A stretch of DNA of 59,017 bases, counting the filler, from Sphacelaria rigidula (lineage: Eukaryota), in the NCBI GenBank assembly GCA_964200075.2. It is 6 parts of 6 records of this genome, joined end to end, with 100 filler letters (N's around TTAATTAATTAA, not from the genome) between each part and the next. Parts side by side here need not be neighbours in the genome. Positions count along the whole stretch, not along the records: positions 39,414 to 49,165 come from CAXNAA020007839.1; 5 more parts are not named here. The stretch is one strand, 5' to 3'. The notes below the pieces were generated by a model. The model was not told the DNA's origin. It ran no database searches and worked only from the letters and a program-made list of their open reading frames with translations. The translations under genes were made by a program, and so were the position numbers. Positions 2,899 to 50,179 of the stretch are shown piece by piece; position 1 is the first letter of the stretch, and each line of letters opens with the position of its first letter.

Positions 2899-5800
2899 TG
2901 TCATGGTTCGATACTCACCGCCTAGCTGGGAATGGTGCCAGTTCAGTGGGCACCTGGGCTAGCGGGCTCAAACAAAACCATGAATATGGAATCCATTGAG
3001 CTCGACGTTACCGAGTGCAGAGTCAGTCATCTTCGCAGCGTCGGGCTGCATACCCGATGAGCCGCTCGGACGCCAGAACAACAAATCTTGCATGAAAAAC
3101 AGGCTTACATTGTGAAAAGACCAGAGATCCCTCTGATACCGCAGTCCGTGATGGCGTAGATGCTCTTGTATTATTGGCGTACAGGCTAACTTGTGTTTTG
3201 CTAGTTGAGATGCATATTCCAAAACGCTGTAACACATGGGGGCAGCCAGCTCAATTTAATAACACAATGTAGTATGACCCATCAGGTAACAAGCATGACA
3301 AAGTATGACACATGGAACCTAGTCGACTGGAAAATGACCAATAAATCTGTGACATCCCCCTAGCCATATTTATATGGCTTCAAACCAAAATTTATTGAAG
3401 GGCTGGAAGGGCCAGAACAAAAACAAAACCTATGCATCATACGCCTTGAAGTAAAACGAGAAAATCCTGCTGAATCACAGTACAGGGGAAAACTCGTTGC
3501 AGATCTAATGAATAGGTAAACCCTGAAAAGCAGGGGGAAAATCCATCCGTTAGGAAAGGAAAAAAACTATAACGCCCTTTCCAACGACAGAAGCAGCAGA
3601 CAAGTACGGTCGCTGTCGTTTTCCCGGGATCTCAGTTAGACTGGAAAACGATCGGCCAGTCAGCTTGATCGCGCGTCGACACCCCGGATCAGTTACACTG
3701 GATTCTGGGGTAGTGTGGGGCTTGAACCTCGCTAAAAACAACCTTTCCACAAAGTGATCAATAGTTACAGGAGTGCAGCTTTTAAGGGGTGGTCTTCTGT
3801 AACTACTGACGCGTATTCTACTGGAACTAGAGCCTACGGGCCTTGGCTCACATATGTACCCGTATGTTACCAAATGGGGAGCAACATCTAACAAAGCGAC
3901 AAAAAAGAAAAAGACAGGAACACTCGAAATTCATTATTGAAACGTACGGTACCAACGATATAGAGCTACTTATTCACTTATTTCATCACCGCATTCCTTT
4001 CGCGATGATATCATATACCACATCACACAACAGCTACTCGTAAACATCGATGGCTGCAGTCTATCCTTGGCTCCTCCGATCCAGCTTGGGGCGCTTGAGT
4101 TCCCGGCGAGATAGCTCTTTCCAGTCTCCATTTTCGTATCGTACTCACCGAAGCGATTCCCATAACCATACACTTGGCACTTCAGCTAGGCACTGCTCTA
4201 GCCTTTCCAGGGGGTAGCATCTATGAGCAAAAGCTTCAAAGTATCACTCGTGTGGGAGTGGGGGGCTCTGAATGCGATGGCGGGGTCGAAGAACTGTGAG
4301 GTGATACAGGTGCAAAAGGCTCATGACGCAGTATGGAGCAATGGGTTGTGGGAAAATATATAAGGAACTGTGATCAGAGGAAAGGTGTGGACGATGAGGA
4401 CTACAGAACTATGCCAAGAGTGTGATGATGCTATGCAGGAAAATATCGATATATTTTGATATTTTGCAAGGGGTCGCACCATGATGTACGTTATCACCCT
4501 CTCTACTCGAGGTATTCTTTGATGACCTGATACTAGCATTAGACATGGCAAAGCAAGGGGTGAAGTTGCTGAAGAAATTGGAAACAGTGCAGCTGGTAGC
4601 AGCTAACAGAATACTTTGATGCGGAAACGGTACAAATGGCAGCAGGTAAAATAATACTTGGATGTGCAATAAAGTCAGTGGAGAAGTTGGGAACAGTACA
4701 GATTGCAACAACTCAGAGAATACTTGGATGCAGTGAAGTTGGTGAAGGAGTTGGGAACAATGCAGATTACAGCAGCTAAGGAAATTACTTGGATGCTCGA
4801 AAAAAATGAGTACGCCCCTCCCCTCCTTTGAAATCTTTCCCTTTTCCCCACCCGTCAGTGCCTGAAACAACGTAGAGTTCTCGACAATCCAACATAGTGA
4901 CAGATATAGGCAATGCAATCCAACACGGGGAGAGATTCAGGGGTCAGGTGGAATGTGGGTGTTGCGGTCCAGTTTGGTCCCGCCCAAGGTGGGACGCAAA
5001 CACTTTGGGTATGGAGTGTTTCGGACGGGATGGGCGGATATGGAAGGAACTTCTTGCTTTTGAGACAGCGGTGGTACGTGTGCAATGTTTACGGACAGTC
5101 CAGAGTTCGAAGGGAAATGTGTCAGACGGTAGCATGGCGTCGGGTCGTCGGGTAGGGTGCGATTGCGCAAGAGTGTGAAACATACTTTCTCTAGGGCCAA
5201 GGTTTGTACAATTCTGTAACCTTTTCAGCAGCCGTCCCCCTAGGTTCTCGAATCCTGTAAAACTGTAGACATAATCATGGAGAAAATAACATAGACAAGG
5301 CATGTTGAATAAAAATATAATAATGAGATACGTTGTATTACATATACGGAGACAAACTCGTGCTTCGCCCCCCCCCAAGGGGGTTCAGCGACCACATCAG
5401 CGGAATCAGTGTCTGAAAACTATATGTAGGGTCTGTAAGAACTGCCAAAGACAAGGTATGGGGTCGCGCAGTCAACTTGCATGGTACGCTGGGCATGAAG
5501 GGCAAAAAGGTAAAGCAGGGAAACTACCTAAGTCTGCGTACTGCATAAGTAAGAACAAGACATTGCACGGAAGGATTTGTGATTGCATAGTATCGAAAAC
5601 CAAGTTTAAAGCAACTGAAAAAAGTAGTATCCAACTACGGTACCAGGAAGGGACAAGGTAGTATCCAACTACGGTACAGGGTGCGTCACGAAGTCAACCT
5701 GGTGAATAACAAACCATAAATCGATTACCAGTGTGGGATAAACTAGGGTTCATGTTCAATGACACCAAGGTAATAACCCTGCTACCAGAATGCTGTAAAA

Positions 5801-9754: not shown

Positions 9755-9854
9755 NNNNNNNNNNNNNNNNNNNNNNNNNNNNNNNNNNNNNNNNNNNNTT
9801 AATTAATTAANNNNNNNNNNNNNNNNNNNNNNNNNNNNNNNNNNNNNNNNNNNN
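9755..9854. other. Artificial contig linker (N44-TTAATTAATTAA-N44); also at 19608-19707, 29461-29560, 39314-39413 and 49166-49265
   Basis: Identical 100-bp spacers carry stop codons in all six frames and separate contigs of descending length. Confidence 0.97.
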
Positions 9855-19119: not shown

Positions 19120-22100
19120 GTGTGTGTGCCGCACGTATTTACGAAGCGGATGATCGGTGCCGTGGACGGCTTTCCTGCTCGTCGTCCGGACCGGTCGGAA
19201 ATGCGCGAAGAAATATTTCGCCGGTCGAGTCCAGTTCTCATGTATCTACTGTCTAAGGCCTTGCCCTCCTGCCCCCCCGCCTGTGCGTTGATATCGTTAT
19301 TGGGTGTACAGCGCGCTCGCAATTGTGAAAAGCAATACTAATCTGGGTCTGTACCCCGCAGGTTCTGGAACGATACATTCTGTACATGAGTAGCCTTTGC
19401 CGTGGGCAGGCGGCGGGTTGTGCCCGCTATCGATAAAACGAAGCGTACTCTTGAGACTCAAGTGGAAGGAAATGCTATTGAAATAGTTTCACCATGCTTA
19501 GAATATCAAGATTAATCATTCTACGATACCCCCCCCCCCAAAAAAAAAAACGTCACGAAGAAAATAGTCATCCAACGCCTGATGTTTGGGTTCAGGCTTC
19601 ATGAAATNNNNNNNNNNNNNNNNNNNNNNNNNNNNNNNNNNNNNNNNNNNNTTAATTAATTAANNNNNNNNNNNNNNNNNNNNNNNNNNNNNNNNNNNNN
19701 NNNNNNNCAATGGTCAAACGACTAAGGCAAGCAACAAATGAGTACGCCCCCCCCCCACCCCCCACCCCTGTGCTTGGGGCGTGACCGGATTGTAATAACC
19801 CATCCCTCCTGCGGTGTTTTGTCGGATATTCTGAGCACGAGGATTAAATTAGCCCTCTCGCGCACCATCGACTCTCGGTAATTTGCATTTTGCTACTCGC
19901 GTCCTTACGCTTCCAACGACGGAAATCACTTTCTTCTACAAAAGCCCATGTCTGTTGGGATAGGTAACCCGTAACTTTGCGGTCTACTGACTAGCACTGT
20001 AACCAGCTGGACCGCCGGGGCGCGGCGGGAAGAATGTGGTGCCACAAGTGGTAGTAAGGGGTGAGCTGATATGTGAGCACGAGGTGTGAACGCCAAACCG
20101 AACTCAGAACCGAATATGAGGAAGGGAGGGCTTTTGGGATCAGGGGCGCGGGTTCTTGTGACAAGATTACTTTCTTAACTCCAACTTGTTCAGATGCCCA
20201 TACCATTGCTACACCCAGGGTTTTGCAGACGCGGCAGGTCGGTCACTTTTCTGTTTTTTGTTGCTGCTCCCTCTCCCTCGTGGTCGTTCTCTCATTTTCT
20301 TCCCATCTTGGTGTGCGTCTGCCTGCTTTCACGCGCTTGCTCAACCCAGTGGGGATCGAAAACATGCTGTGCACAATGCGCCCTGCACTTCATCTGACAA
20401 CTAACCAACTAGCTCCCGTGCGCCGTCGCTCAAAAACTGAACTTTGAGGATCGGAACGCGTGGCGAAAACTAACGGCTGAACACCGCAGGCGCGCACTGT
20501 ATTCCTTCACGGCCGTCTCAAGGTGTGTGTGTGTGTGTTTGTGTCTACATCTCCTGGGTTTCAAAGCATCGAACTGGATGCTACGATTGACAGTTGATGC
20601 ATATTACACCAAAACATCCTCGACCCTTTGGGCGTAAGACCACATTTCGGATTAGCTTTTCAGGCTGTCCTTCACTGCCTGCTAATCCGGCGCTGCAGGC
20701 AAGAAGCTCGTTCCCTGGTCGGTGGTACCACCCTTAACGCGGGCATAAACACGTCGTCAGTCCTTGATCCCTACCCTGTGGCTTCTATAACATGGCGTGC
20801 TTATGGCTGACGGCGAAGCAGTTGCCTAATTTTTAGATGTTTCTAGCCGTAATATGGTGTCCTATCCGGTATCCATTGCCTAGTGAGCCTATCAAATACT
20901 GAAAAAGGACAAGAAGATCATCCATCAGTTCGGGGTTGCTTATCGATCGGTACAACGGTTAAGCACAGCTCCGCGTGAGTAGAGCAACCGATTGTATTCA
21001 GCACGGTCGTGCCTACACAGTAGTACTGTAGCAGCAGCTGTGTACCACGCATCCTCGAGAAAAAACACTGCCTTATCCAGAGGCAAAACACGGCACATAA
21101 CTCCGCTGCGTATAATCACTTGTTATACTACATCCTTTTGTGAGCGCCCACCGTGTTCACCAGCTCAATCGGAATCATCCTCACTTGATAGAGAATGACT
21201 TGTCAGTCATAGCTTCGGCAATGCCAGCTCAATTTTCCAGGTCAAATGCTATCGCATACTTGTTTTTGGAACTCGTACTCAGCTCTCAGCCTGACGTTCC
21301 TGTCGTTGTACTCATAAATATTTTCTTTCTTTTCTTCTCATTTTGCCTTTCCCTCAAGGCTTTTTCAGCCAGCGTTTCCCTGCTTTCACCTTGGGTACTG
21401 CACGCCTATTCAAGTCACAACGGTCAGATGCGTAGTGTACCATCTATAATGAAACAGTCATTAATCGGCTGTGTCTGACTCGAGGCATAAAAAATAGCAT
21501 TATACAATCAAGTTCGCCCCTGATTGGCCGCGGCGACACCACTGCCTTGAAAAAAAAGGCGAACATGATTTCTAGTATCGGGAACGTGATGTCTGAAAAG
21601 TTCTCCCGAAGCTGTTTTCACGATCATTCGGGTTGTTCCGAGAAACCACGGTCCTCGCAGGGGAACATGGAAGTGCGGCGCAACCGCTGTACTGTACCAC
21701 GGACACCTCAAACACTCGCGCCGGATCACGCCACTACTGTACAAAGAAAAGTATGCACAGCGCATACGCCATTTTCAGCGAGAGTAGAGAGCGGCCGACA
21801 TTGTGTTTGTGCGTGTGTGTGACATATTGTAGGATCTGAGGCAAAGCCACGCCGGAGAGGCAAGAGGAAGACACCTAACAAAATATGGGGGGAACAAAAA
21901 TCGCTCTCAACGGACTATTACCGCCTGCCGCGCCTGCCCTTTCATCCTCACTGATAACTCCCGTTGCGCCGGAACCCTGGTGGTGGAGCTCCGAAACAAC
22001 CTGATTATTTTGGTAGAGCGAACTGTAGTGCATTGACTGCTGTACCGCCGTCTAGGGGTGTCAAGCATCTCAAAGTTCACTGACTCGTCCGCCGCGTTCC

Positions 22101-29215: not shown

Positions 29216-29843
29216 TTTGGTCGGCCGCTTATCGGTCGACCCTTGTAGTAAGACAGAGAACATCCACTAGTCAGGGATCGTCGATGCTAGAGGCAGATGC
29301 TCTTGGGTTCTGCACGCCGTCTCGCGCAAGATGCGACCGTGCCACCGAGCCGAAGAGAACACTGTCTTCCGCCAAGGACCACTTCTGAGTGATGCTGCGA
29401 TAGGGTCTGCGCTTTTGCGGCCTGAGAGGAAATCGGGATTTAGGCATGTCGAATCACCTTNNNNNNNNNNNNNNNNNNNNNNNNNNNNNNNNNNNNNNNN
29501 NNNNTTAATTAATTAANNNNNNNNNNNNNNNNNNNNNNNNNNNNNNNNNNNNNNNNNNNNGTGGAATGGCGCAAAAGTTGCGTGGATACCGCTTGGACCA
29601 GCGATCAACTTTTTTCTCCCTTTCGGGTAATCAGGCCGAAGGAATCGTGAATTTGCTGTTTTTGAGTCGTGATGATTTGTCCCAACCGTGGAACGTTTCG
29701 TCCATACATACGTGGTGGAAGAGTCAGGAAAGCGAACCGCGCGTTTGCTTCTTCGTCATAGTTTTCATCCACTGATGCGTCCAGATAAAACGGCGGGAAA
29801 AAGGAAAGGATAGGGTGGTGCCGATCCATTTCATGCGTCTTGC

Positions 29844-32800: not shown

Positions 32801-33684
32801 GTTGTTAAACTAGAGGTGGGTTCATTTTGCGCAGTTACGTGCGGGTATCATTTGCCCCCCTCGTCACCCCCTTGGCGATAGCATGAAGGCACCACAGGTG
32901 GTCTCCAACTGTACTGGGGGGGAACGCGAAACTTTCAGTGTAGGGGAGGCCAGCGGTGACGCCGAGTCGTCCGTTTTTCGACACCAAGCACTCAATCTAT
33001 ACGAGTAATAGGAGCGCCTACTTTATGCTTGCAATATGATTGACGGCCAGGTTGACAATTGGTGCAGGATAGTACAGTGTAATCGACTGGAACATCGTAG
33101 TGAAATGGCTCACTTATAAATTGAAATCTAGAATCATGGTCACGTTTCCACGATTCTGTTTCCTTATACTCTCGTGATGGAGTTCGTTACAACTGACTGG
33201 CGGCGCCGTTGTCACCTTCCGGCTGTGTCAGCAGCGGAAGATGCAGCTTCTAACTACGTGATCCCACACAAAAAAAAAAGTACGCCAAATTACTCCGAGA
33301 CAGTTACAGTTAAATCACACTCGATGGTGGCACCTATCCATTTCTCGCCGCACTTGGTCATGCGCATCAACCATTATATTTTAGAAAGCGAACGCAATAC
33401 TTGTAGCTTGCAAGTATACAAAAGAGCACCCTGTCAAGGTGGCCGCTTCCGTAATCACTCTGACTCCACCTTTTTCTTGTCCCAAAGCCCAGAAATACCT
33501 TTTCGTTGGGATCCCATCGATATATCTTGAAGTTCTTGACGTTGCTACTGGCACTGGCGGGGGTCTCGTCTTTGGCCGCGGCGGCAGGCGCCGCTGCCGC
33601 CGACTTCAACCTCACCAACAAAGCTCCGACTACCGGCGGTCTGCCGGCCGCCGATCGCGCTGGTGTTGCCGCTGCTGCAAGCAT
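29844..33684 (-). CDS. SDHB: Succinate dehydrogenase iron-sulfur subunit, mitochondrial (5' part; exons 33684-33499, 32075-31983, 31590-31483, 29996-29844; 3' exons off the contig)
   Basis: Spliced product: transit peptide, then [118 protein letters not shown]. It carries the diagnostic 2Fe-2S motif CREGICGSC, and all introns are phase 0. Confidence 0.97.
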
Positions 33685-38135: not shown

Positions 38136-39815
38136 GTGATTTTGGGGGAGGAGAATTGCCGTGTTATAGTATGTTGTACAAAAGTCCTCTGCAGCGCATC
38201 GTCTGCGATAGTGCATACCGGACACCGTGGTTGAGTTACAGGCCATTTGACCACGCGGTGCTCCCTGGTTGTTGAACTTACCATTATCCCAGGTTCGTTT
38301 GAGTGCTCACAGTGAAAACTAAAACGTGTGAGCACGCGAGGTTGGTCCGACCATCCGTGTGGCTTCTTGACCGGTAGCCAGAAAGATTTCCGCGTGTCGC
38401 TCGCGCAAACTCCTGTTTGCCACGCACATGTGATTTGACGTCAACACCAAGTGCCATAGATAATTCGCATTTTCTTGCGCAAAAGCGAGGTGCTGCTGAG
38501 CACGGGCCGCCTGAAATGGTATCACCCCTGATCCCTCCTAGACTCAGCATTTTCTTCGGGTACAGAACAGTGTGTGCAGTATAGCAACACATTGCTTGAA
38601 CATGTGACATGGTATTTTGAATTTTCGCTAACCACATGACACGCGTGAAGAGCTCGCGCAATCTCTGACAGCTCCCAGATGCATAGTAGTTTCCAGCTGA
38701 ATCAGCATGTTTTATGATTTTTTCGTGGTCGGCGATTTTCAATAGTTCTACGTTTGCCACTGCCCATCCCAATGAGCGTTTGATTCAAAGTCGGGGGGTC
38801 GGGAGATACTAAGCATCCGCTCCACATTCCGAAACAAAGGTCATATCTGCACTGAACGTTTGACGACTTATGAGCTGACCGGTCCACGGCGGTCCTGCGA
38901 CCACCGAACCCCAGGTTCTGACCCTTGGGTCCTCGATTGAAGCAATCCCGATCGTTCTCGTGAACAAATGTCAAGTTTTTTTGGTTTCCGCCTTTTTATT
39001 ACGCTAGGGCTGAAACGTTTTTGGACCAGCGATGGCCAATAACACCCCCTGATAAACGAGGGCCTTACTCCTTGCCACCCCGTCAACACCAACTTGAGGA
39101 TCGTGTCCATAGTACCACCTGCTTCTTTTACCAGCATGTATCGACGGTAGTATTTTCGAGTGCTAAAGAAGAATGCTATACGAGAAAATTCAGATGAGTA
39201 CTGTACCCAACTACGAAAATTGCCCAACCGAGCTCTGTAAAGCACAGGGGGGGAAGGGGGTGTACTCATGATCATGCATGCCATAGTCGTCAGACCATTA
39301 ACGTCGCATCCCTNNNNNNNNNNNNNNNNNNNNNNNNNNNNNNNNNNNNNNNNNNNNTTAATTAATTAANNNNNNNNNNNNNNNNNNNNNNNNNNNNNNN
39401 NNNNNNNNNNNNNATTTTTTATTATTCCACTAACACAGGGTCAACCCTGTGTTAGTGGGGGTCCGGTCCCAAAAGGGTTAATAGGACAGCAGTCGTACTT
39501 CCAGACTTTTCTGCACGGAGGAACCATGAACCGCAGAGCCGCTACCGCCTCTTCATATCACTATTTTTCTCTTTGTCTTTTTTCGGATGTTGGAGACTAG
39601 TCGAAGCTACCGTTGGATACCAAAAGATCGGTTCCAGTCAAAACACTGCTGACAAACCAGCCATTGGCGTCAGGGGTGGCTTAAGGTGGGCCTAATACGG
39701 CACTTTCCTCTACTGTTGCGCGAGTACATTCGAGCGGCCTTCCGGTCAACGCACGCGAGCGAATGCCACTCGTATTGTGAAGTCATTACTGTAGCAACTA
39801 AACGACCAAACTTAC

Positions 39816-40415: not shown

Positions 40416-40815
40416 CCCTAGGCAAGTGCCTGGTGAACATGAAGTTGAAACACAAATAATTAAATTTTCATAGTGAGACGAACCATTGGACATCGCAATG
40501 CTAAATTGGAGTACGACCTTTCTTATACGTGGTGAACGCAAGGAGTTCTGCGCTTTCGTCCCAGCCCGGCGCAGCGCCCGGCCGTGTATGCTGACGTCAT
40601 AGAGGACTGCTCAGTAGTTTTGGCTACTGTAGGTGGTTGCGCCAGATAGAAGTTGCCGGGGGGAGGGCAGCAAATAGTGGTGCATTTCGGCGTTGTACGC
40701 CCAAGTCACCTGTGCTTCAACTCCATATCTCTCCGCAGCGTCGCCCTTAGGCAACGGCGGACACAATACTGCAGTGCTGTACAACTGTACGGGGCGGTAC
40801 TGTACTGTAGCAGAC

Positions 40816-41080
40816 ATGGTTCGGCTGGTGGATGGTGCGATAGTGGAAGATGATGATCCGTCGTGGCAATGGAGGAGTTGGACGATCAATCTGTTTGGGT
40901 TTCGAGTGCCCATTCTTCCGTGGGGTGTTTTGATCGCCGCATTTTTCTTCTTGAGATTCGGTCCATATGGGCTCGGTCTCTTCGCCGTCGTTGCAGGTGG
41001 GTTTGCAATGTCACCGTGGAAAATAGTCCAAAACGAAAACGGATTATTGAGTACATACGATTAATACGCTTCATGTGAAG

Positions 41081-41154
<74 letters not shown>

Positions 41155-44100
41155 ACGATTACCATTTTCATTCACACGATTGTTTGAATTGATACGTAGT
41201 ACAAAAGTTGGTCGATGCTGCGTGATGCTGCATAACGTCTCCAGTATACAATATCCACAACTGCGACGGTCGGTTGGAAGAGGAGTTATAAATAGTTACC
41301 CTGGCCAGGACCCGGACTAGCTGCCAGTTGCACTCGAAACGTGCTCCAGGTAACCGTAAAGGTTGTCATGTTGCGTTGACTGTACTCGCAGCGCGACTCA
41401 TACTGTGCAACCCGCAGAACTTGTTGTCGAACAGATACCAGATACCCTCGTTTTCCAATACACCACCTGCGATATCAAACAGATACCAGAAGTTTCAGCA
41501 TCATCCGAGACCTGGTGCGGGGTGCCTTGAGGCATGACCTTCAGATGTATCGCCTCCATACTTTGGAAATGGAAAAACACTGAGTAATTCATGCACAGTT
41601 ATGGGCGCGCCTGACCCCCCAAAATGGGCAAAAAAAGTGTCACCGACCAATATCACGAACAGACACGAACAGACCGACTTCTGGGGCTTTTCCAGGCTCG
41701 TGGAGTAAAATGCGCCTCACGTCATCGGAAGAGAACGGCATGGATCCAAAATTCATACCGAAAAAAACTGGACTGCCGTCTAAACCAAAACCCTACCGTT
41801 TGGTCGGTGACACTTTTTGGGCTCATCTTGGGGGGTCAGGCGCGCCTATAACAGTGCCATGGGATATTGCACGGGGTACAGTGCGGTAACCCAACCGCAG
41901 CAGGGGCTGAGGCAAGTAGGTTGTTGACCATTCTGGAACCATGTAGTTATTGTCGATACTGAAACCAAGTAACTGCACTGTAACTAAAACCAAGTAGACA
42001 TTGACTGTTGTACTCTAAATCCAAGTAGTTATTAACACTGAAACCAAGTTATTATGATCAGGCTGAACTCTAGTATATTTTGTACCTTACTCATCCCAAG
42101 AAATTTAGTCACTCACACTAAGGTCAAGTAATTCCATCGGTACGTAGACGATACCATACGAGTACATTATCCAAAAAGAATGTAAGTTGGTAAATTTCGA
42201 CGTTAATCCTTTTGGGACCGGACCCCCACTAACACAAAGTCAACCCTGTGTTGGTGGGATAATAAAAAGAAGTCTCCGAGCGACCTGCCCAATCACGGCG
42301 AGCCGAGATTTATCGACCAGATCCGAACGACCAGCGCGGGGATTATTGTCGAGTGTGATGCCACTGCAAAGATCGTGTGGGGGCCCTATCCCTGGCCCAG
42401 ATAAGCCTCCCCAGGTTTTCAACAAGTGCAGGGCGGTCGCAGCTTGTTTTTATGGTATTACTTGCACTTAGTATAGCGTTCCCGCGTTTTTCCGGAGTGT
42501 TTTTTGGGTCCCAATTCTACACTGAAACGTAGTAATTCATACTAACACAGGGTGGACCGGAAAAAACCGGGAAGGATTGTACATGCTACAATGTGGTCAT
42601 TTTCACGAGGCACTAAACCCAGGTGGGCCGTGGAAGGACAAAATGAGCTACCGTCATGGATTCTGCTTATCCCTATGCCGATGACTTGCAGTGTTCAGTT
42701 CACATGTACGGAGTATGTAGTAGGCGGAGATGAAGAAGCGATATGTAGGCAGTTGATCACGGTGGCTGAGAATTGCCCAGAACGTGCAAGGGAGTATGCA
42801 ACGGCAGCTGCTGCTGCAGTCGGGGAGGCGTACTGCACTGTACTTGTACTATACTATACTGTTGTATGCATGCGCGCCGCAACACTGATATACCCTTCGA
42901 AGAGAATTTACCGCATGCAACAAGGAGGGAAATGGCGGTCCACCCCGACTACAAAGGGCTGTGTGGCAAGGTGAAAGGTACAACAATACCATCCAAAGCC
43001 ATAAGTTGCGGGCGGCCCGCCGGTCGCCGTATCCTGTTGGAAGCTCTCTACCGCGATCCATACTGCTTGCTACATCAGATGTACACTACCTAATGCGCAC
43101 CCTCCACCTGAAAATAGATTGAATGAAACTTTCGGTCTTCGTCATAACCCTGCGGTGACATACGCGGATTTTCAGCAACATGCCACTGTTTCGCGCAGAC
43201 ACCAGACACGTCATTCCTAACCAGCCTCATCGGTCGTTCTGGAGGCCCGATCCCAAAAGGGTTAAAGCACAGTGCTGTCGAGGCCCATGGCCGTCTTCGG
43301 CCTTAGCTGGCGCCAGCGGTGCTCGATTTCGTGTCCTGCCCTTATTTTCCTCATTCTCGACAGCCTCCGAGGGGGTGTGTGCGTACTCATTTGTTTGCCT
43401 TATTCGTTTCCCCATTGACCACGCATCCCTTTCGAGACAGAGGGGGGGGAGGGCTTTGGCTCCCAGTGACGGCATATTGTGGATGGATTACTTCACGCTA
43501 GTCTGCGGCATGTCGTCAGACATGTCATACAACTGAAGGAAGAATACACTCGCAGTGGAAGCTGTTGGTACAGAACGGTGCTTGTCTGCAAGAGTTGAAA
43601 AATCACTCACTCGTGCCCACGGCACATTGCAAACGCCTCCAAACTTGTATACACACCCCATAGAATAGTGTGTCAGTACATTTCACCTTGTCCAAGAGCT
43701 CCTTCATCGAATACCACTCTGCGGCTCGCGTCTCGTCGACAACTATGGCTGTTTGCCGATATCACTTTGCCGCACGACAGGTGTCTGATTCTTCGTGCAT
43801 ACCTCGAGCACAGTTCTAGTAGGTGGTACATTGGCCGAGGGGCGTTGCGCTGCAAGAGGCAGTAGTCGCGAGGCAGCACGTGGAGGTACAGCCGCCATGA
43901 TATGCACGCGCAATATATCAACGTTTTCTAGCATAGCTGTGGCTCCTCGAGATATCTCCCTGTGCAAAAACTACTCCAGCGTCATATATAGTGCTGGTGC
44001 GCAGCCTCCACCATGGAGGAGCATAGATATACTGCCCATTGTTGGTTTGCTGGGTCCTTGACATTTTCTCACTTATAACTGCACGTGTGCGATGGACCGG

Positions 44101-44857
44101 ACCGAAACCGCCGGGTAAATTTGATTTTTGCTAATATTGAAACCTCCAGGTGCCAGTCGTTTCATGTGTGACGGCAACAGGGGTGATTCTCGGAGCCGCA
44201 TCAGTCGCGGTGGCGGCGGAAGCCGACGTTCAGGTACGGAGTCGTGGCACTGTGTGTATGCCAGACCCTCAACGTGGTCGCCTCATGACGCTTGCCCTGC
44301 TGAATTTGATAGTGGAGCACGGGATAGGTGTTTGAGTTGTTCAAACGATCTTTGTGTCCTGCGGGGCGTGGTGGTTGTGGCGGTGGTCGTACGGTGTACA
44401 ATATATATATATATTGTTGTTTTCGCGTGCGTTTGTGGGTAATACATGGTACAGTCATCATGATTGAAATTCAGTGTTGATGAACCTGCCAAAGCACTTC
44501 GCCATTTGCGCCGTAGTTCCAGCTCCAGCGGATTGTTGCACATCAGTAATTTCCAACAATGACCTCCGGAAACCGACCAATATTTTGCCATCGTCACTTG
44601 TCTTGTGCCTTTGTCATGTACTTCAAGAATCGTGGTCGCCTATTAGGAACAGCACGAGAGCCCTCAGGTGTAGCTTTTCCATAACAAAGCGCCGTGTCTG
44701 CGCGCTCCCTTGTCGCCGCCGCCTTCGACGCATGTACGCCTTGTGGTGCATTCTCTACTCGTCGTCCTTCCATGCGTTCGCAGGCTCTAACGTACGGGGC
44801 ATGGACGACCTGCCAAAGTCACCACCGCCTAGCTGACGCGGGCCGGGCGCGTGCTAG
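40816..44857 (+). CDS. Predicted small membrane selenoprotein (SelK/SelS-like architecture, FAM241/DUF4605-like N-terminus); exons 40816-40996, 44150-44233, 44784-44857; 112 aa, Sec106 encoded by TGA 44834-44836
   Basis: The exons join through GT-AG introns in matching phase (1,1). Product: MVRLVDGAIVEDDDPSWQWRSWTINLFGFRVPILPWGVLIAAFFFLRFGPYGLGLFAVVAG-ASRFMCDGNRGDSRSRISRGGGGSRRSG-SNVRGMDDLPKSPPPS-U-RGPGAC-TAG. It has a hydrophobic segment, a Gly/Arg/Pro-rich tail, a near-terminal TGA and a downstream SECIS. Confidence 0.8.
41080..41153 (+). repeat. (ACA)n microsatellite in selenoprotein intron 1
   Basis: Direct read of the sequence. Confidence 0.95.
41598..41852. mobile_element. MITE (about 255 bp, about 50-bp TIRs) in intron 1 of the selenoprotein gene
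   Basis: Left end GTTATGGGCGCGCCTGACCCCCCAAAATGGGCAAAAAAAGTGTCACCGACCA; right end TGGTCGGTGACACTTTTTGGGCTCATCTTGGGGGGTCAGGCGCGCCTATAAC. Confidence 0.8.
42580..43085 (+). repeat. Dispersed repeat of about 500 bp; inverted copy at about 49320-49775
   Basis: The shared text translates as YVVGGDEEA...QLI..AENC.ERA.EYA.AAAA.VGEAYCT in both copies (ORFs 42552+ and 49301-). Confidence 0.8.
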
Positions 44858-45689
44858 GTTGTTAGCGCACGCTCGATGATGAATATTGTGCACCTCCCCC
44901 CCCCGCATACATCCCACACCTTCCATAAGTGACGGAGCATCGTATCCCGAGTGCTACGTTTTTCAATCTCGAAGCCGTCGAGAGCACAAGCCTGCTCTTC
45001 CCGAGATGTCCCTGTCTGTCAAAGATGTGGACAAAGTATGGGTTTAATCGTTTCATCACTAGGGGTAATGGTCTCCACAAATAGTGGCTTCGCCGAATTC
45101 GGGTTTTGGACTACGCGTCTAAGCGAGACATTGCGAGCGATGGAGCAAAACACCTCCTCTTTGTAACGCACATTTTTTTATTGCTGCGGCGTCTGCGAGA
45201 CTCGCGGCAACGTCGCCGAAAGTTACGTCGTTGAAATATTTTGTCGAAATATTTCGATGAAGTGGATCTCTTGGTCAAGTTTCTTCTTGTTCATCTCGAA
45301 TAGTAAGAAGATTGACAAGTTATCCCCTCGTTGAGGTTCCATACTCCAATGCCTGCGGTATAGTACGCATGATTTTGCCGTTGTGGGTACTTGCCACCAT
45401 TTGCCATCGAGTCCAAGGGGTCTAAGAAGTTAGACTGGTGTGGCGATGAAAATATTGTGTATTAGTACATATTAGTGCAAGAGAGGAGAGGGTAGGCGAA
45501 ACAGTGGGCGTTCGGGGAAGGGGGGGTAGGAGGGAGCCCGTCAGGGTCCATTTTCCACAATGCTTACCTTGCCGTGCTACAGATGATCAAATGATGCTGA
45601 CGCTGTAGCCGGTCGTGTGAGAATGTTCAGTAGTGGTAATGGTCTTTTTGCCATAGTGCTGATGGCTTCTATGAACGGAAGAGAGGAAA

Positions 45690-45765
45690 GGGTTTCGGTA
45701 ATGACGTTTGGTGGCAAAAATGCCCTCCGGGGTGCGCCAGCAGGCTGACACGCGATTCTCGTTCC
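45690..45765 (+). promoter_or_regulatory. Eukaryotic SECIS element, type 2 (3' UTR of the selenoprotein gene)
   Basis: Sequence: ATGAC (45701-45705), GTTTGGTGGC, AAAAA (45716-45720), mini-stem TGCCC-TCCG-GGGTG, C, GCCAGCAGGC, TGAC (45746-45749). Helix II pairs 9 of 10 positions, two of them G-U. The UGAC/UGAC non-Watson-Crick quartet is present and 11 nt separate ATGA from the apical As. Confidence 0.85.
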
Positions 45766-48700
45766 TTTTGCTCTTTTGATTTTTCTTGTTATGTTGGTGA
45801 GTATGTGTTGGTTGCCGTGTTGGTGCTGTGGCCCCGTTCTTGTGGTTTCGTTGTTACGCATTCCGCGGACTTTGAGCGTTTGCATGATTGCGCACTGAGT
45901 ATTATTGAACCTTGCGTCCGCTTTTGCTTGGCTTTCGCCGTGTATATTGTCCATGTATGTGTTTGCGTAAGCTATCCTTTTGGCGCTGGCGCCGTCAACA
46001 TGTTGTGCGCTGCGCCCATTCATGGAAACCTGAGTATGATAGATCATGTTTGAGTGAAGATGACCGCCGATTCCACAGATGAGAAGCACGGGCGGTCGAA
46101 GAGTTGATGCACATACTCATTAGTGTTTTGCACGTTTTACGCGGGTTCGCTAGGCTGATTCGCGTCAAGTAGAAATCGGCGATCATGAGATTCTTCACGA
46201 TGCGTACTACCTCGAAAGATGTTCAGAATTGTTTTTCATGGCAAGTCTGCGGAACATCCCGAAACCGGTAGTGGAATAAAACTCGGATTCGAGTAGAAAC
46301 ATACAGCGCAGACAGTTCAGAGACATGCGTGTTGCGTACATTAATGAAGATTCGTCGGCCCTACTTCAGTGGGTTAGCTTCCATTTTTCCCGTGGTTTCA
46401 CCGGATTCGGTTGCGAGCTGGTGCAAGTAGTCACGTCTTATCTTCGGTTTGAAGCTCTGCGAACCAGATCTGTCCAATGGCATGCTGTAACACGTGAAAC
46501 ATTTCTCCAGTGGAGCGCTCATCACCGTTTAGATAGAGGGAAAATATGTTTTATCGTATACTTGACAGTTACGTTGCCACATCTTGGCGTGTTGACAGAT
46601 GTTGGCTTTTAAGTTGTACCTGGTTTCCTCCAGACCGTGTGGGATTGGTGGAGGAATTGAAGATGTAGTCTTTGATACCAAGAGTCCAGTTTTCGTATGC
46701 TTGAGCGCCAAGTTGCATGCATTCCTTACGAAACCTGAGAAAATCGCTGAAGTTTGGCAGCCTGCGACGGCACGCTCTTTCTGTCCCGCAAACCGCACTC
46801 CCGAAATGTTTCACGGCTCGGATAACTAAAATAGTGATTCGGCTCATGTTCAACATTTGGACGAGCCAACCATACGATTCGTATCCAAGTTGTTACTTGT
46901 ACATGTTTGGGGTTCGTGAGTCGTACGGCAATTCTATGATTCGTGCGATGCACCGTCGAAGGTACACATTTCCTACCTTCCATTCGTATGGCGTGATTCA
47001 TAAGTACATGTTCCCCGATTTCCATTGATTCAGCGCAGCATGAATCATAGGCACACGCTCCCCACTGACCTTTTTTCGTACGAGGTGAATCAAGTGTACG
47101 TGGCTACGAATTTCCGTTCATGCAGCATGAATCAAATGTACAAGTTTCCCATTTTCCACTCAAACGAGGTGAATCAAACATGAATGTTTTCCCAAATTCC
47201 AATCATGCAGCATGGATCGTACGTACATGTTCCGTAATTTCCGTTCATACGAGATGGATGAAGCTTACATGTTTCCCCTTTTCTTCCACGCAGCGCACAC
47301 CATACGTACATGTCCAGACTCGTGTACTATCTAGACGACTGCGGAGCTACCGATCGAGGGTATGTCGAGTGACGGGGACCCATTTGTGAAGAAAATGTGT
47401 ACGCCAAGCGACACATATGGCAAGATCTTTCGTCGTGAGTACTACCGCGATATTTTCATGGTACATCGCGCTTGAAAGCCTCGGCGTTTTGGTGCGTTGC
47501 AGTTAGGGCCGTTATTATCGACAAAGTTTTTTGGGAGATCGTCCTAATTTTAGGCGTTTTCGCACTTTTTTTACCACCTTCTCCCAAAATAAAGCGGCGA
47601 GATTTTTTTGCCAAGCCTTCACGTTTGGCGAAAGTCCGATTTTTCGCACCCCAGCACATTACTCTGCAGAGCTGCCCTTGGCGCACGCCGTGGCGTTCGC
47701 AAGCATGCGATAGTCATCCCGAACCTTGCTAGTGACACCCTGGGCTATGTCGTAAAGTAAAAAGCACCGCGGGATAGCGGTATCTATCTCCTTAGACGGT
47801 GTGTGCCCCGGCAGCGGTGTTGGAGCTTTTGGAGTCAAGCACCGTCGTTTGCAGACATGAGCACTTTCGAAGTGAAGAGCAGGAACAATCCAGTAGCTAT
47901 CTACTTGCCTGCTGTGCTGCTACGTGTGTACGCTACCGCACCGTCTGAAAAGTGTACAGCTGGTGGGTTAATTGGGTGTATCTGCGCATACTGTACAACT
48001 CACAGAAGGAAAGCATGCTGCAATCTATCTGCGGGGCTTTCTACAGTCGGTATTTTCACTCATGTGTGCTGCTCCAGCATCCCGAGAGAGCCGGTCGATC
48101 ACGCCCTAGCCTGTCCGACTGCCCCCCCGTGTCACAGAGAGGTTTTGAGAAGGATGTTTACCACAGTGTTCGCTTTGGGTCCGTTCAAGCGTTCGAAGAT
48201 AGCGTCGAACAGCACAAAGAATCTTTGCTGGCATTGGCATCTGCAAATTAATACAGTACCATCACAAATCGACAACTTAACGTTCTTATTTGAAACCAAC
48301 GGGCATCAAAGTGTTTGTAGTTACGAAGACGGGCATTTTCATTGACGAGAAACTCTGTGTTCCCCCGTAGCCGTTACATGCGGTCTCAAAAAGTATGCTG
48401 TCCTTCTTTCAAACCTGGCGGACGGACGGGGAAGCCGCAATCCCTCGGGTAAGGAGAGTCATTTCAACCATGTCGACGTACTTTGAAAAAACGAGCTCTT
48501 TCCTTTCCAAAGGTATTCCGAATTTGGATTCATAATAACATGTGATATTATAACCGAGTGTGACCTCTATAGGCAGACATCTGTAGACGGGAAGCAGCCA
48601 GTAGAGTAGGTAGACGAAAGCTCCAGATCGCAGCTGACGCACCCCTCTGCACGATGCTAGCAACAGTTAGGTCATCATCATAGGTATCTTTTTCCACTCT

Positions 48701-50179
48701 GCATGTCAAGAAGGTCTTCACAAGTGTTTGATCTGCCGTGCACTCCCCCCCAACTCGCGTGTGGTCAAGCGCCCGGGTGGGGTGGCGGACAACCAACGAT
48801 GAATAACACCCCCTAAGCTCATATTGGATATATCTGGTTTTGCCGCAGCACCGTCCTTGCGGGCATGTGTGTGACAGAGAACAGTAGTAGCGGTGACGGA
48901 AATATTGCCCTCTTTTTCAAGGATATGTTCTTCAGCGCACAGAGGCGCGTGCTGTCCAAAAAGAGAGCCAGAGAGAAATTGATCTTCGCATCGATGATGA
49001 GGTGCTCACGCAAGACGAAGAAACGAGATCTCTTCGCAGGTCGGTCTTTAGGCACAACATGGAAAGTTCGGTTCATGCTGGTAACATGCATGATGCCAGT
49101 CTCTCGAGCGATTGGTAATCGCCGAGCGAGGACACACAAAGGACACGGGCGAGGAGCTTCCTCTCNNNNNNNNNNNNNNNNNNNNNNNNNNNNNNNNNNN
49201 NNNNNNNNNTTAATTAATTAANNNNNNNNNNNNNNNNNNNNNNNNNNNNNNNNNNNNNNNNNNNNGAGGCACTAGATGCCCTTAATCTGGACATTGCGTC
49301 TCATTTTTTTAGGGCTGTTACAAGCAGTATGGGTCGCCGTAGGAAGCTTTCGACAGGATGTGGTGGCCGGCGGGCCGCCCGCCACTTGTGGCTTTGGATT
49401 ATTTTGTTGTCCCCATCACGTTGCCACACAACCCTTTGTGGTCGGGGTGAACCGCGATTTCCCTCTTCGTCGCAAGCGGCAAAGTCTCTTCGAAGGGTAT
49501 GAGCATTGCGGCGACATACATAAGAGTACAGTCCAGTGCAGTACGCCTCTCCGACTGCATCAGCAGCAGCTGCGGCTGCATACTCTTTTGCACGTTCTGA
49601 GCAGTTCTCAGCTGCCGAGATCAACTGCTTATTTACCGCTTCTTCATCCCCGCCCACTACGTACATGTTCACAATGCTCTGCAAGGCATCGGCGGAGGGA
49701 TAGGCGGAATTCATGGCGATAGCTCTTTTTGTCCTTCCACTGCCCACCTGACTCTAGTGCCTCGTGAAGATGATCACATGGGAGCATGTACACTCCTTGT
49801 CGGTTTTCCCCCTCCACCCTGTGTTAGTAATACGAGAAGCCTTTCTCTGAGCATCCGGGATTCTCTTTCAGTACCTGGGAAGACTTGTCTGGGCCAGGGA
49901 TGGAGCCCCCACACGATATTGGCAGTGACATCATCAAACTCGCTATCCTGAAAGCAGCACAGACAGTACTCCCGGCATAGAAACGGATACCAAGTATGCC
50001 GGAATGGTGTAAAAGTCCCGAAACGAGAGCAGCAGTACAGCAGAGGCAGCACTTGCCCACGGACGGCAGGCATGACACCTGGTTAAAGACAATCGCACCC
50101 CAGCAACGTGAAAAGCATTCAGAGCCGCGTGTTAAGGAGTACGCACTGCGACAGACGGCGGTGCCCATGCACACCTGGA

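Follow-up and report, generated by a model that had tools for sequence, protein, structure and literature searches.

SELENOS combines a membrane anchor with a disordered tail, a Sec-Cys pair, and a long coiled-coil region. In SELENOK, a small membrane protein, the tail is rich in Gly, Arg, and Pro, and Sec lies close to the C-terminus (PMC10298544). To detect SECIS elements, SECISearch uses the motif NUGA..AA..GA with spacings of 10-13 nt and 15-39 nt, together with energy thresholds of -3.7 for the upper part and -12.6 for the whole structure (PMC2375036). Excerpts of PMC7539508 credit brown algae with only five to six selenoprotein genes.

Here, we analyzed a 59,017-nt stretch of DNA from the brown alga Sphacelaria rigidula (the window), which very probably contains a single-copy, three-exon selenoprotein gene with a form 2 SECIS element in its 3' UTR, whose UGA codon 106 is read as Sec. 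This conclusion draws on the anatomy of the element, on its location in the spliced transcript, on the TGA in frame with the coding sequence, on orthologs that end at the corresponding point, and on the presence of an eEFSec gene. As part of the same explanation, the protein most likely represents a stramenopile family that has no name and is separate from canonical SELENOK.

A three-exon gene with an in-frame TGA

The whole gene lies inside one contig (C7839) and occurs in one copy in the genome. It comprises the following features:

40579..40815, plus strand: 5' UTR part of exon 1, beginning at the start of an RNA contig rather than at a mapped start site
40816..40996, plus strand: coding part of exon 1, with the ATG, a conserved N-terminal motif, and a hydrophobic membrane segment (about residues 26-60)
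40997..44149, plus strand: intron 1, GT..AG, 3,153 nt, repeat-rich
44150..44233, plus strand: exon 2, with Cys67 and a Gly/Arg/Ser-rich linker
44234..44783, plus strand: intron 2, GT..AG, 550 nt
44784..44857, plus strand: coding part of exon 3, with an NVRG..LP..PPP motif, the predicted Sec codon, R-G-P-G-A-C, and TAG (44855-44857)
44834..44836, plus strand: in-frame TGA, predicted selenocysteine 106
44858..46795, plus strand: 3' UTR, about 1.9 kb, as far as the RNA contigs extend (X1 to 46697, X10 to 46795)
45684..45766, plus strand: SECIS element including an imperfect helix I, MFE -29.8 kcal/mol
45701..45749, plus strand: SECIS core, helix II, AAAAA bulge, and mini-stem (form 2), upper part -16.9 kcal/mol

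Intron 1 (40997-44149) was skipped in sequencing runs X1, X5, and X10 and intron 2 (44234-44783) in X1 and X10, with the RNA status of these three runs itself inferred from the splice joints; X7 showed neither joint. In X1, a single contig of 2,416 nt spans 40579 to 46697, crossing both joints and the SECIS element. Presence in the mRNA, on which the original prediction depended, was thereby established, with the element located in the spliced transcript 3' of the in-frame TGA at codon 106. With the strand inferred from the GT..AG intron ends, the element sits in the 3' UTR in sense orientation, and the mRNA contains a UGA in frame.

The reading frame starts at 40816, meets the TGA at codon 106, and ends at the TAG at 44855-44857. 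The read-through product has 112 residues, ends in U-R-G-P-G-A-C, and contains Cys at positions 67 and 112. By hydropathy, residues from about 26 to 60 are hydrophobic, and 67% of the tail consists of Gly, Arg, Ser, and Pro.

Apparent exons at 43979-44083 are absent from the spliced contig and are thus intronic. The part of intron 1 at 42138-43450 consists of high-copy repeats, very deep in the DNA run and in the RNA-like runs, and copies of the intron 1 repeats occur at 49600-49950 and on other contigs. Runs of N interrupt the window at 9755-9854, 19608-19707, 29461-29560, 39314-39413, and 49166-49265 (about every 9.85 kb); since the window is a concatenation of separate contigs, sequences on either side of such a run are probably not adjacent in the genome. 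Exons of the succinate dehydrogenase iron-sulfur subunit were seen at about 33370-33600 of the window (minus strand) and at C7838:1917-2030 (PF13085 match).

Anatomy and fold of the SECIS element

A position-by-position check of the pairing located a form 2 SECIS element at 45701-45749 on the plus strand, with the anatomy that the original prediction had listed. The 5' core consists of A45701 and UGAC at 45702-45705, and the 3' core of UGAC at 45746-45749. Helix II pairs 45706-45715 with 45736-45745, and all ten of its positions are as described (in order, G-C, U-G, U-G, U-A, G-C, G.G, U-A, G-C, G-C, and C-G). The AAAAA bulge at the apex occupies 45716-45720. The mini-stem, formed by 45721-45725 and 45730-45734 (U-G, G-U, and three C-G pairs) around a UCCG loop, is also present, but the earlier description had omitted a bulged C45735. 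In the unconstrained MFE fold, helix II and the mini-stem were paired, both cores were unpaired, and the imperfect helix I proposed from the flanks did form. The element lies downstream of the TGA as claimed, at a measured distance of 865 nt against the stated value of about 870 nt.

Both the motif and its spacings fall inside the SECISearch ranges, and the energies (-16.9 for the upper part and -29.8 kcal/mol for the whole) are beyond both thresholds. Geometry, energies, and 3' UTR location all fit form 2 and bear out the assignment to the canonical type 2. The SECIS itself is an ordinary, textbook recoding signal.

Homologs and possible ancestry of the protein

Every homolog with a named source comes from a brown alga (Ectocarpus species, Pylaiella, Scytosiphon, or Undaria), and the proteins are labelled as unnamed or unknown. 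The homolog search gave 33 matches, most of which represent exon 1 continued into the intron. All 13 stored orthologs with the tail motif (6 clusters) stop just before the TGA column; this end point is also consistent with a conserved true stop and was weighed jointly with the SECIS element. No longer homolog was present among 40 candidates, and one protein of 1,063 aa (P0003) was excluded from the homolog set. Databases appear to list the protein too short across brown algae. Two metagenome loci (L001 and L002) were rejected, as both are antisense to DNA that is GC-rich and looks bacterial. No published description of the family was found in the literature searched, mostly open access; the supplement of PMC7539508 may use another name.

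In the Atlas, the Ectocarpus protein was placed with an unnamed, mostly diatom cluster of 175 members (0.93), an oomycete cluster (0.85), and, in third place, a DUF4605 cluster (0.83), scores below 0.9 being leads only; exon 1 alone was uninformative. The structure model of the Ectocarpus ortholog (mean pLDDT 55) contains a short beta-hairpin and two helices at pLDDT 75-78. Fold searches with a model of this mean pLDDT found nothing at E <= 0.001 (best Z 4.4), and a sequence search of the PDB found nothing significant.

Two readings of the ancestry are compatible with the selenoprotein explanation. In the first, which we favor tentatively while placing it somewhat short of even, the protein is a homolog of FAM241 (DUF4605) with a SelK-type Sec tail. 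DUF4605 was the most recurrent weak Pfam match, found in 5 of 27 and 1 of 6 family members (best E 0.0096, 16.1 bits), and the third rank of its cluster in the Atlas, at 0.83, points in the same direction. The N-terminal motif of the window family presumably resembles that of FAM241B. In FAM241 proteins, the first 20 residues are conserved and are accompanied by a membrane segment, and the partners are in the ER (PMC11880036). However, the DUF4605 matches lie far under the 27-bit cut-off and all fall on hydrophobic residues. Further families gave weak matches as well, and one of these, the unrelated DUF1614, once outscored DUF4605 (E 0.0048). A genome search with PF15378 gave four matches, all at E >= 3 and none in the window, and did not pick exon 1; moreover, excerpts of PMC11880036 describe FAM241 as undetected in single-celled eukaryotes.

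FAM241 ancestry is a lead. A more far-reaching version is in our view doubtful. It would make the family the FAM241/DUF4605 branch of stramenopiles, place the origin of FAM241 long before that of animals, and give at least the stramenopile form a C-terminal redox tail (Sec...Cys) that is missing in animals. If true, it would tie an orphan human ER family to SELENOK/SELENOS-type membrane redox adaptors, and the selenoproteins would gain a family not yet catalogued.

The genome also encodes a canonical SELENOK, in a gene of its own (contig C19110, L014:2024-4237 and 4735-4781). Its second exon (28 residues) matches PF10961 at E 0.0038, and its last exon reads G-G-U-G-stop. The gene carries a form 2 element about 500 nt downstream, which is the sole scan match in that contig and starts with the same AUGACGUU as the window element. 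The first intron of SELENOK may use a GC donor (L014, about 393). PF10961 had five matches in the genome; four of them, including one over the cut-off, looked spurious on translation, and L006 is the true SELENOK.

The second reading, that the window gene is a very divergent SELENOK paralog, we consider unlikely. Size and layout are alike, and the tails of the window gene and the same-genome SELENOK align over 19 columns (hhalign probability 42, E 2.6e-4). Yet the aligned tail is Gly/Arg low-complexity sequence and Sec is seventh from the end of the window protein, and the membrane exons of the two genes gave no alignment (probability 0.3). PF10961 (SelK_SelG) matched none of the 27 and none of the 6 members of the window family and none of the three window exons, compared with E 0.0038 for the true SELENOK exon. 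The Rdx family gave no match.

Selenocysteine machinery in the genome

A multi-exon eEFSec gene is located at C157:20300-24700 on the plus strand (L072/L076). The exons seen are open and conserved, with matches to human eEFSec at E 3e-8 and 3e-6, and the G-domain exons are present as well. A SELENOM/Sep15-type exon at C15091:2598-2813 (minus strand, L106) scores 65 bits, contains C-S-G-TGA inside the domain, and has a signal-peptide-like start; the last SELENOM exon and its SECIS were not found on this contig and probably lie past the contig ends. Further observations include a glutathione peroxidase exon with an active-site Cys (C10837:5548-5766, L017) and a thioredoxin-reductase-like C-terminal exon (C2252:199-300, minus strand, L110). 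The thioredoxin reductase tail was not found, its last exon probably being beyond the contig end.

A single tRNA-Sec-like gene was found, at C8:3705-3790 on the minus strand (L012:1501-1586), scoring 64.6 bits with RF01852 and showing a 9/4 fold. Its anticodon is CCG rather than UCA, the acceptor stem is followed by A, and ARAGORN called the gene tRNA-Arg. Judged by shared repeats, it resides in algal nuclear DNA. A tRNA-Sec is reported in Ectocarpus (PMC3531208). In the fragmented assembly of S. rigidula, no tRNA-Sec with a UCA anticodon was found, and none of 1 + 14 + 15 pattern matches was a tRNA-Sec. Variants with a CUUCAAA loop of a tRNA-derived, SINE-like repeat (L014:1800-1860; L058-L060, L064, L065, and L068) can mimic a UCA-anticodon tRNA. 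SepSecS and selD/SPS were undetected in the assembly, at a low sensitivity on short exons. The assembly comprises 27,214 contigs. Only part of the exons are picked up by the family search (in a test with SDHB, one exon over the cut-off). Because the assembly is fragmented and the search misses short exons, the missing SepSecS, SPS, and UCA tRNA are weak evidence.

The CCG gene may have become a pseudogene, may encode a re-assigned tRNA, or may signal that decoding was lost. We tend to read it as a duplicate that has diverged, with the functional copy absent from the assembly; this leaves a small share of probability for a loss of Sec decoding. The SECIS element would then be a genuine ancestral one, decoding would have been lost with the changed anticodon of tRNA-Sec, and UGA106 would be a plain stop at the end of a 105-residue protein. 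The sole tRNA-Sec-like gene, with its CCG anticodon and an A where G73 is typical of tRNA-Sec (PMC5330540), is in line with such a loss, as are the undetected SepSecS and SPS and the Cys in the one glutathione peroxidase exon found. The loss is nevertheless improbable, considering that the eEFSec exons were seen open and conserved and that SELENOM has retained an internal TGA in its CxxU motif, termination at which would cost the protein its domain. In addition, two SECIS elements are intact, though unused ones are said to vanish quickly (PMC2375036), and the absences come from a 27,214-contig assembly and a search that misses short exons. That the TGA encodes Sec, for which the original prediction had taken the element as independent evidence, is supported by the spliced-mRNA location, the ends of 13 of 13 orthologs, the SELENOK element of the same design, and eEFSec.

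Statistical weight of the element

Scoring by a covariance model, which had been suggested as a check, gave a divided result. Positions 1-64 of Rfam SECIS_1, its full length, aligned to 45692-45758, but at 17.1 bits the score was under the cut-off of 35 (E 2.4 across 4,227 families, or about 6e-4 for a single family by division). At the gathering score, Rfam had no match in the whole window, and RF00031 found nothing genome-wide at E <= 10. The SECIS of the same-genome SELENOK was likewise unlisted by Rfam SECIS_1 at E <= 10, and the model is thus insensitive in this genome.

The bare SECIS motif is at chance level, with 2,498 matches in the genome versus 2,389 in the reversed control, and the overall folding stability is unremarkable (z -1.24 and -1.15). 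Scanning both strands of the window for motif plus geometry returned one match, the element at 45701-45749, and the same scan returned none in 40 background stretches from this genome, which total 799,902 nt. Wider settings yielded 1, 1, and 6 background matches per approximately 800 kb, and omission of the energy limit yielded 26 and 49; these rarity figures are somewhat flattering, since the custom scanner was designed after the target and SELENOK elements were known. Among 2,000 dinucleotide shuffles of the UTR, 39 had any relaxed match, 10 had a match with at most one mismatch, and none had an equally stable one. Motif and geometry combined exceed chance level. The sequencing runs are near-identical over the locus, with zero changes inside the element, and the X1 contig differs from the window at seven positions, none in the TGA or the SECIS and too few to indicate constraint.

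A hairpin that arose by chance, with the gene an ordinary one ending at the TGA, would fit the chance-level bare motif, the folding z of about -1.2, and an ortholog end point that may also be a conserved true stop, but is highly improbable given a background of 0-1 (strict) to 6 (loose) matches per 800 kb, 0 of 2,000 shuffles as stable, and a SelK-like protein tail.

Predicted function and comparison with known systems

Following the established pathway, SBP2 would bind the GA/GA kink-turn core of the element, eEFSec would deliver Sec-tRNA, and UGA106 would be decoded as Sec. The product would comprise 112 residues, and without selenium a 105-residue form missing both U106 and C112 would be made. 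The hydrophobic region may form a helical hairpin that anchors the protein in the ER, with a flexible Gly/Arg/Pro-rich tail in the cytosol, where Sec106 and Cys112 might act as a redox pair (selenenylsulfide) on partner membrane proteins. This prediction of an ER anchor and of a redox tail acting on membrane partners is built on analogy with SELENOS and with SELENOK (PMC10298544), and we regard it as evenly balanced.

The gene would add a selenoprotein family to brown algae. Public models probably all break off where Sec is encoded, which would leave out the residues likely to be reactive. Should the link to FAM241 hold, a human family whose function is unknown would gain a redox hypothesis that can be tested.

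With Rfam RF00031 (SECIS_1), the element shares the A-UGAN core, a 10-position helix II, unpaired AAA, the mini-stem, the NGAN core, and the 3' UTR location; it differs in its score (17.1 versus a cut-off of 35 bits), whereas the structure itself shows no departure from the consensus. The MSP protein and the hypothetical selenoproteins 1-3 of Ostreococcus, as presented in excerpts of PMC2375036, are likewise algal selenoproteins of the kind that annotation tends to miss, but have no resemblance to the window protein in sequence by eye.

FAM241A/B (PF15378) are similar to the window protein in size, have a conserved N-terminal motif, and give weak profile matches, and an ER association of FAM241 is reported (PMC11880036). 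These matches are below the cut-off; the consulted excerpts of PMC11880036 make no mention of Sec and report FAM241A/B from multicellular animals only. The predicted window protein shares with SELENOS a membrane anchor and a tail with Sec and Cys, but is shorter, shows no sign of a long coiled-coil, carries the Cys after the Sec, and gave no SELENOS match in Pfam.

Like SELENOK, the window protein is a membrane protein of about 10-12 kDa whose tail is rich in Gly, Arg, and Pro, with a predicted Sec close to the C-terminus. By analogy, the window protein would act like a SELENOK/SELENOS-type protein, yet it fails the SELENOK profile: it has no PF10961 match and a longer, hairpin-like hydrophobic region. 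Unlike SELENOK, it is also predicted to continue for six residues past Sec, which is seventh from the end, and to terminate in Cys.
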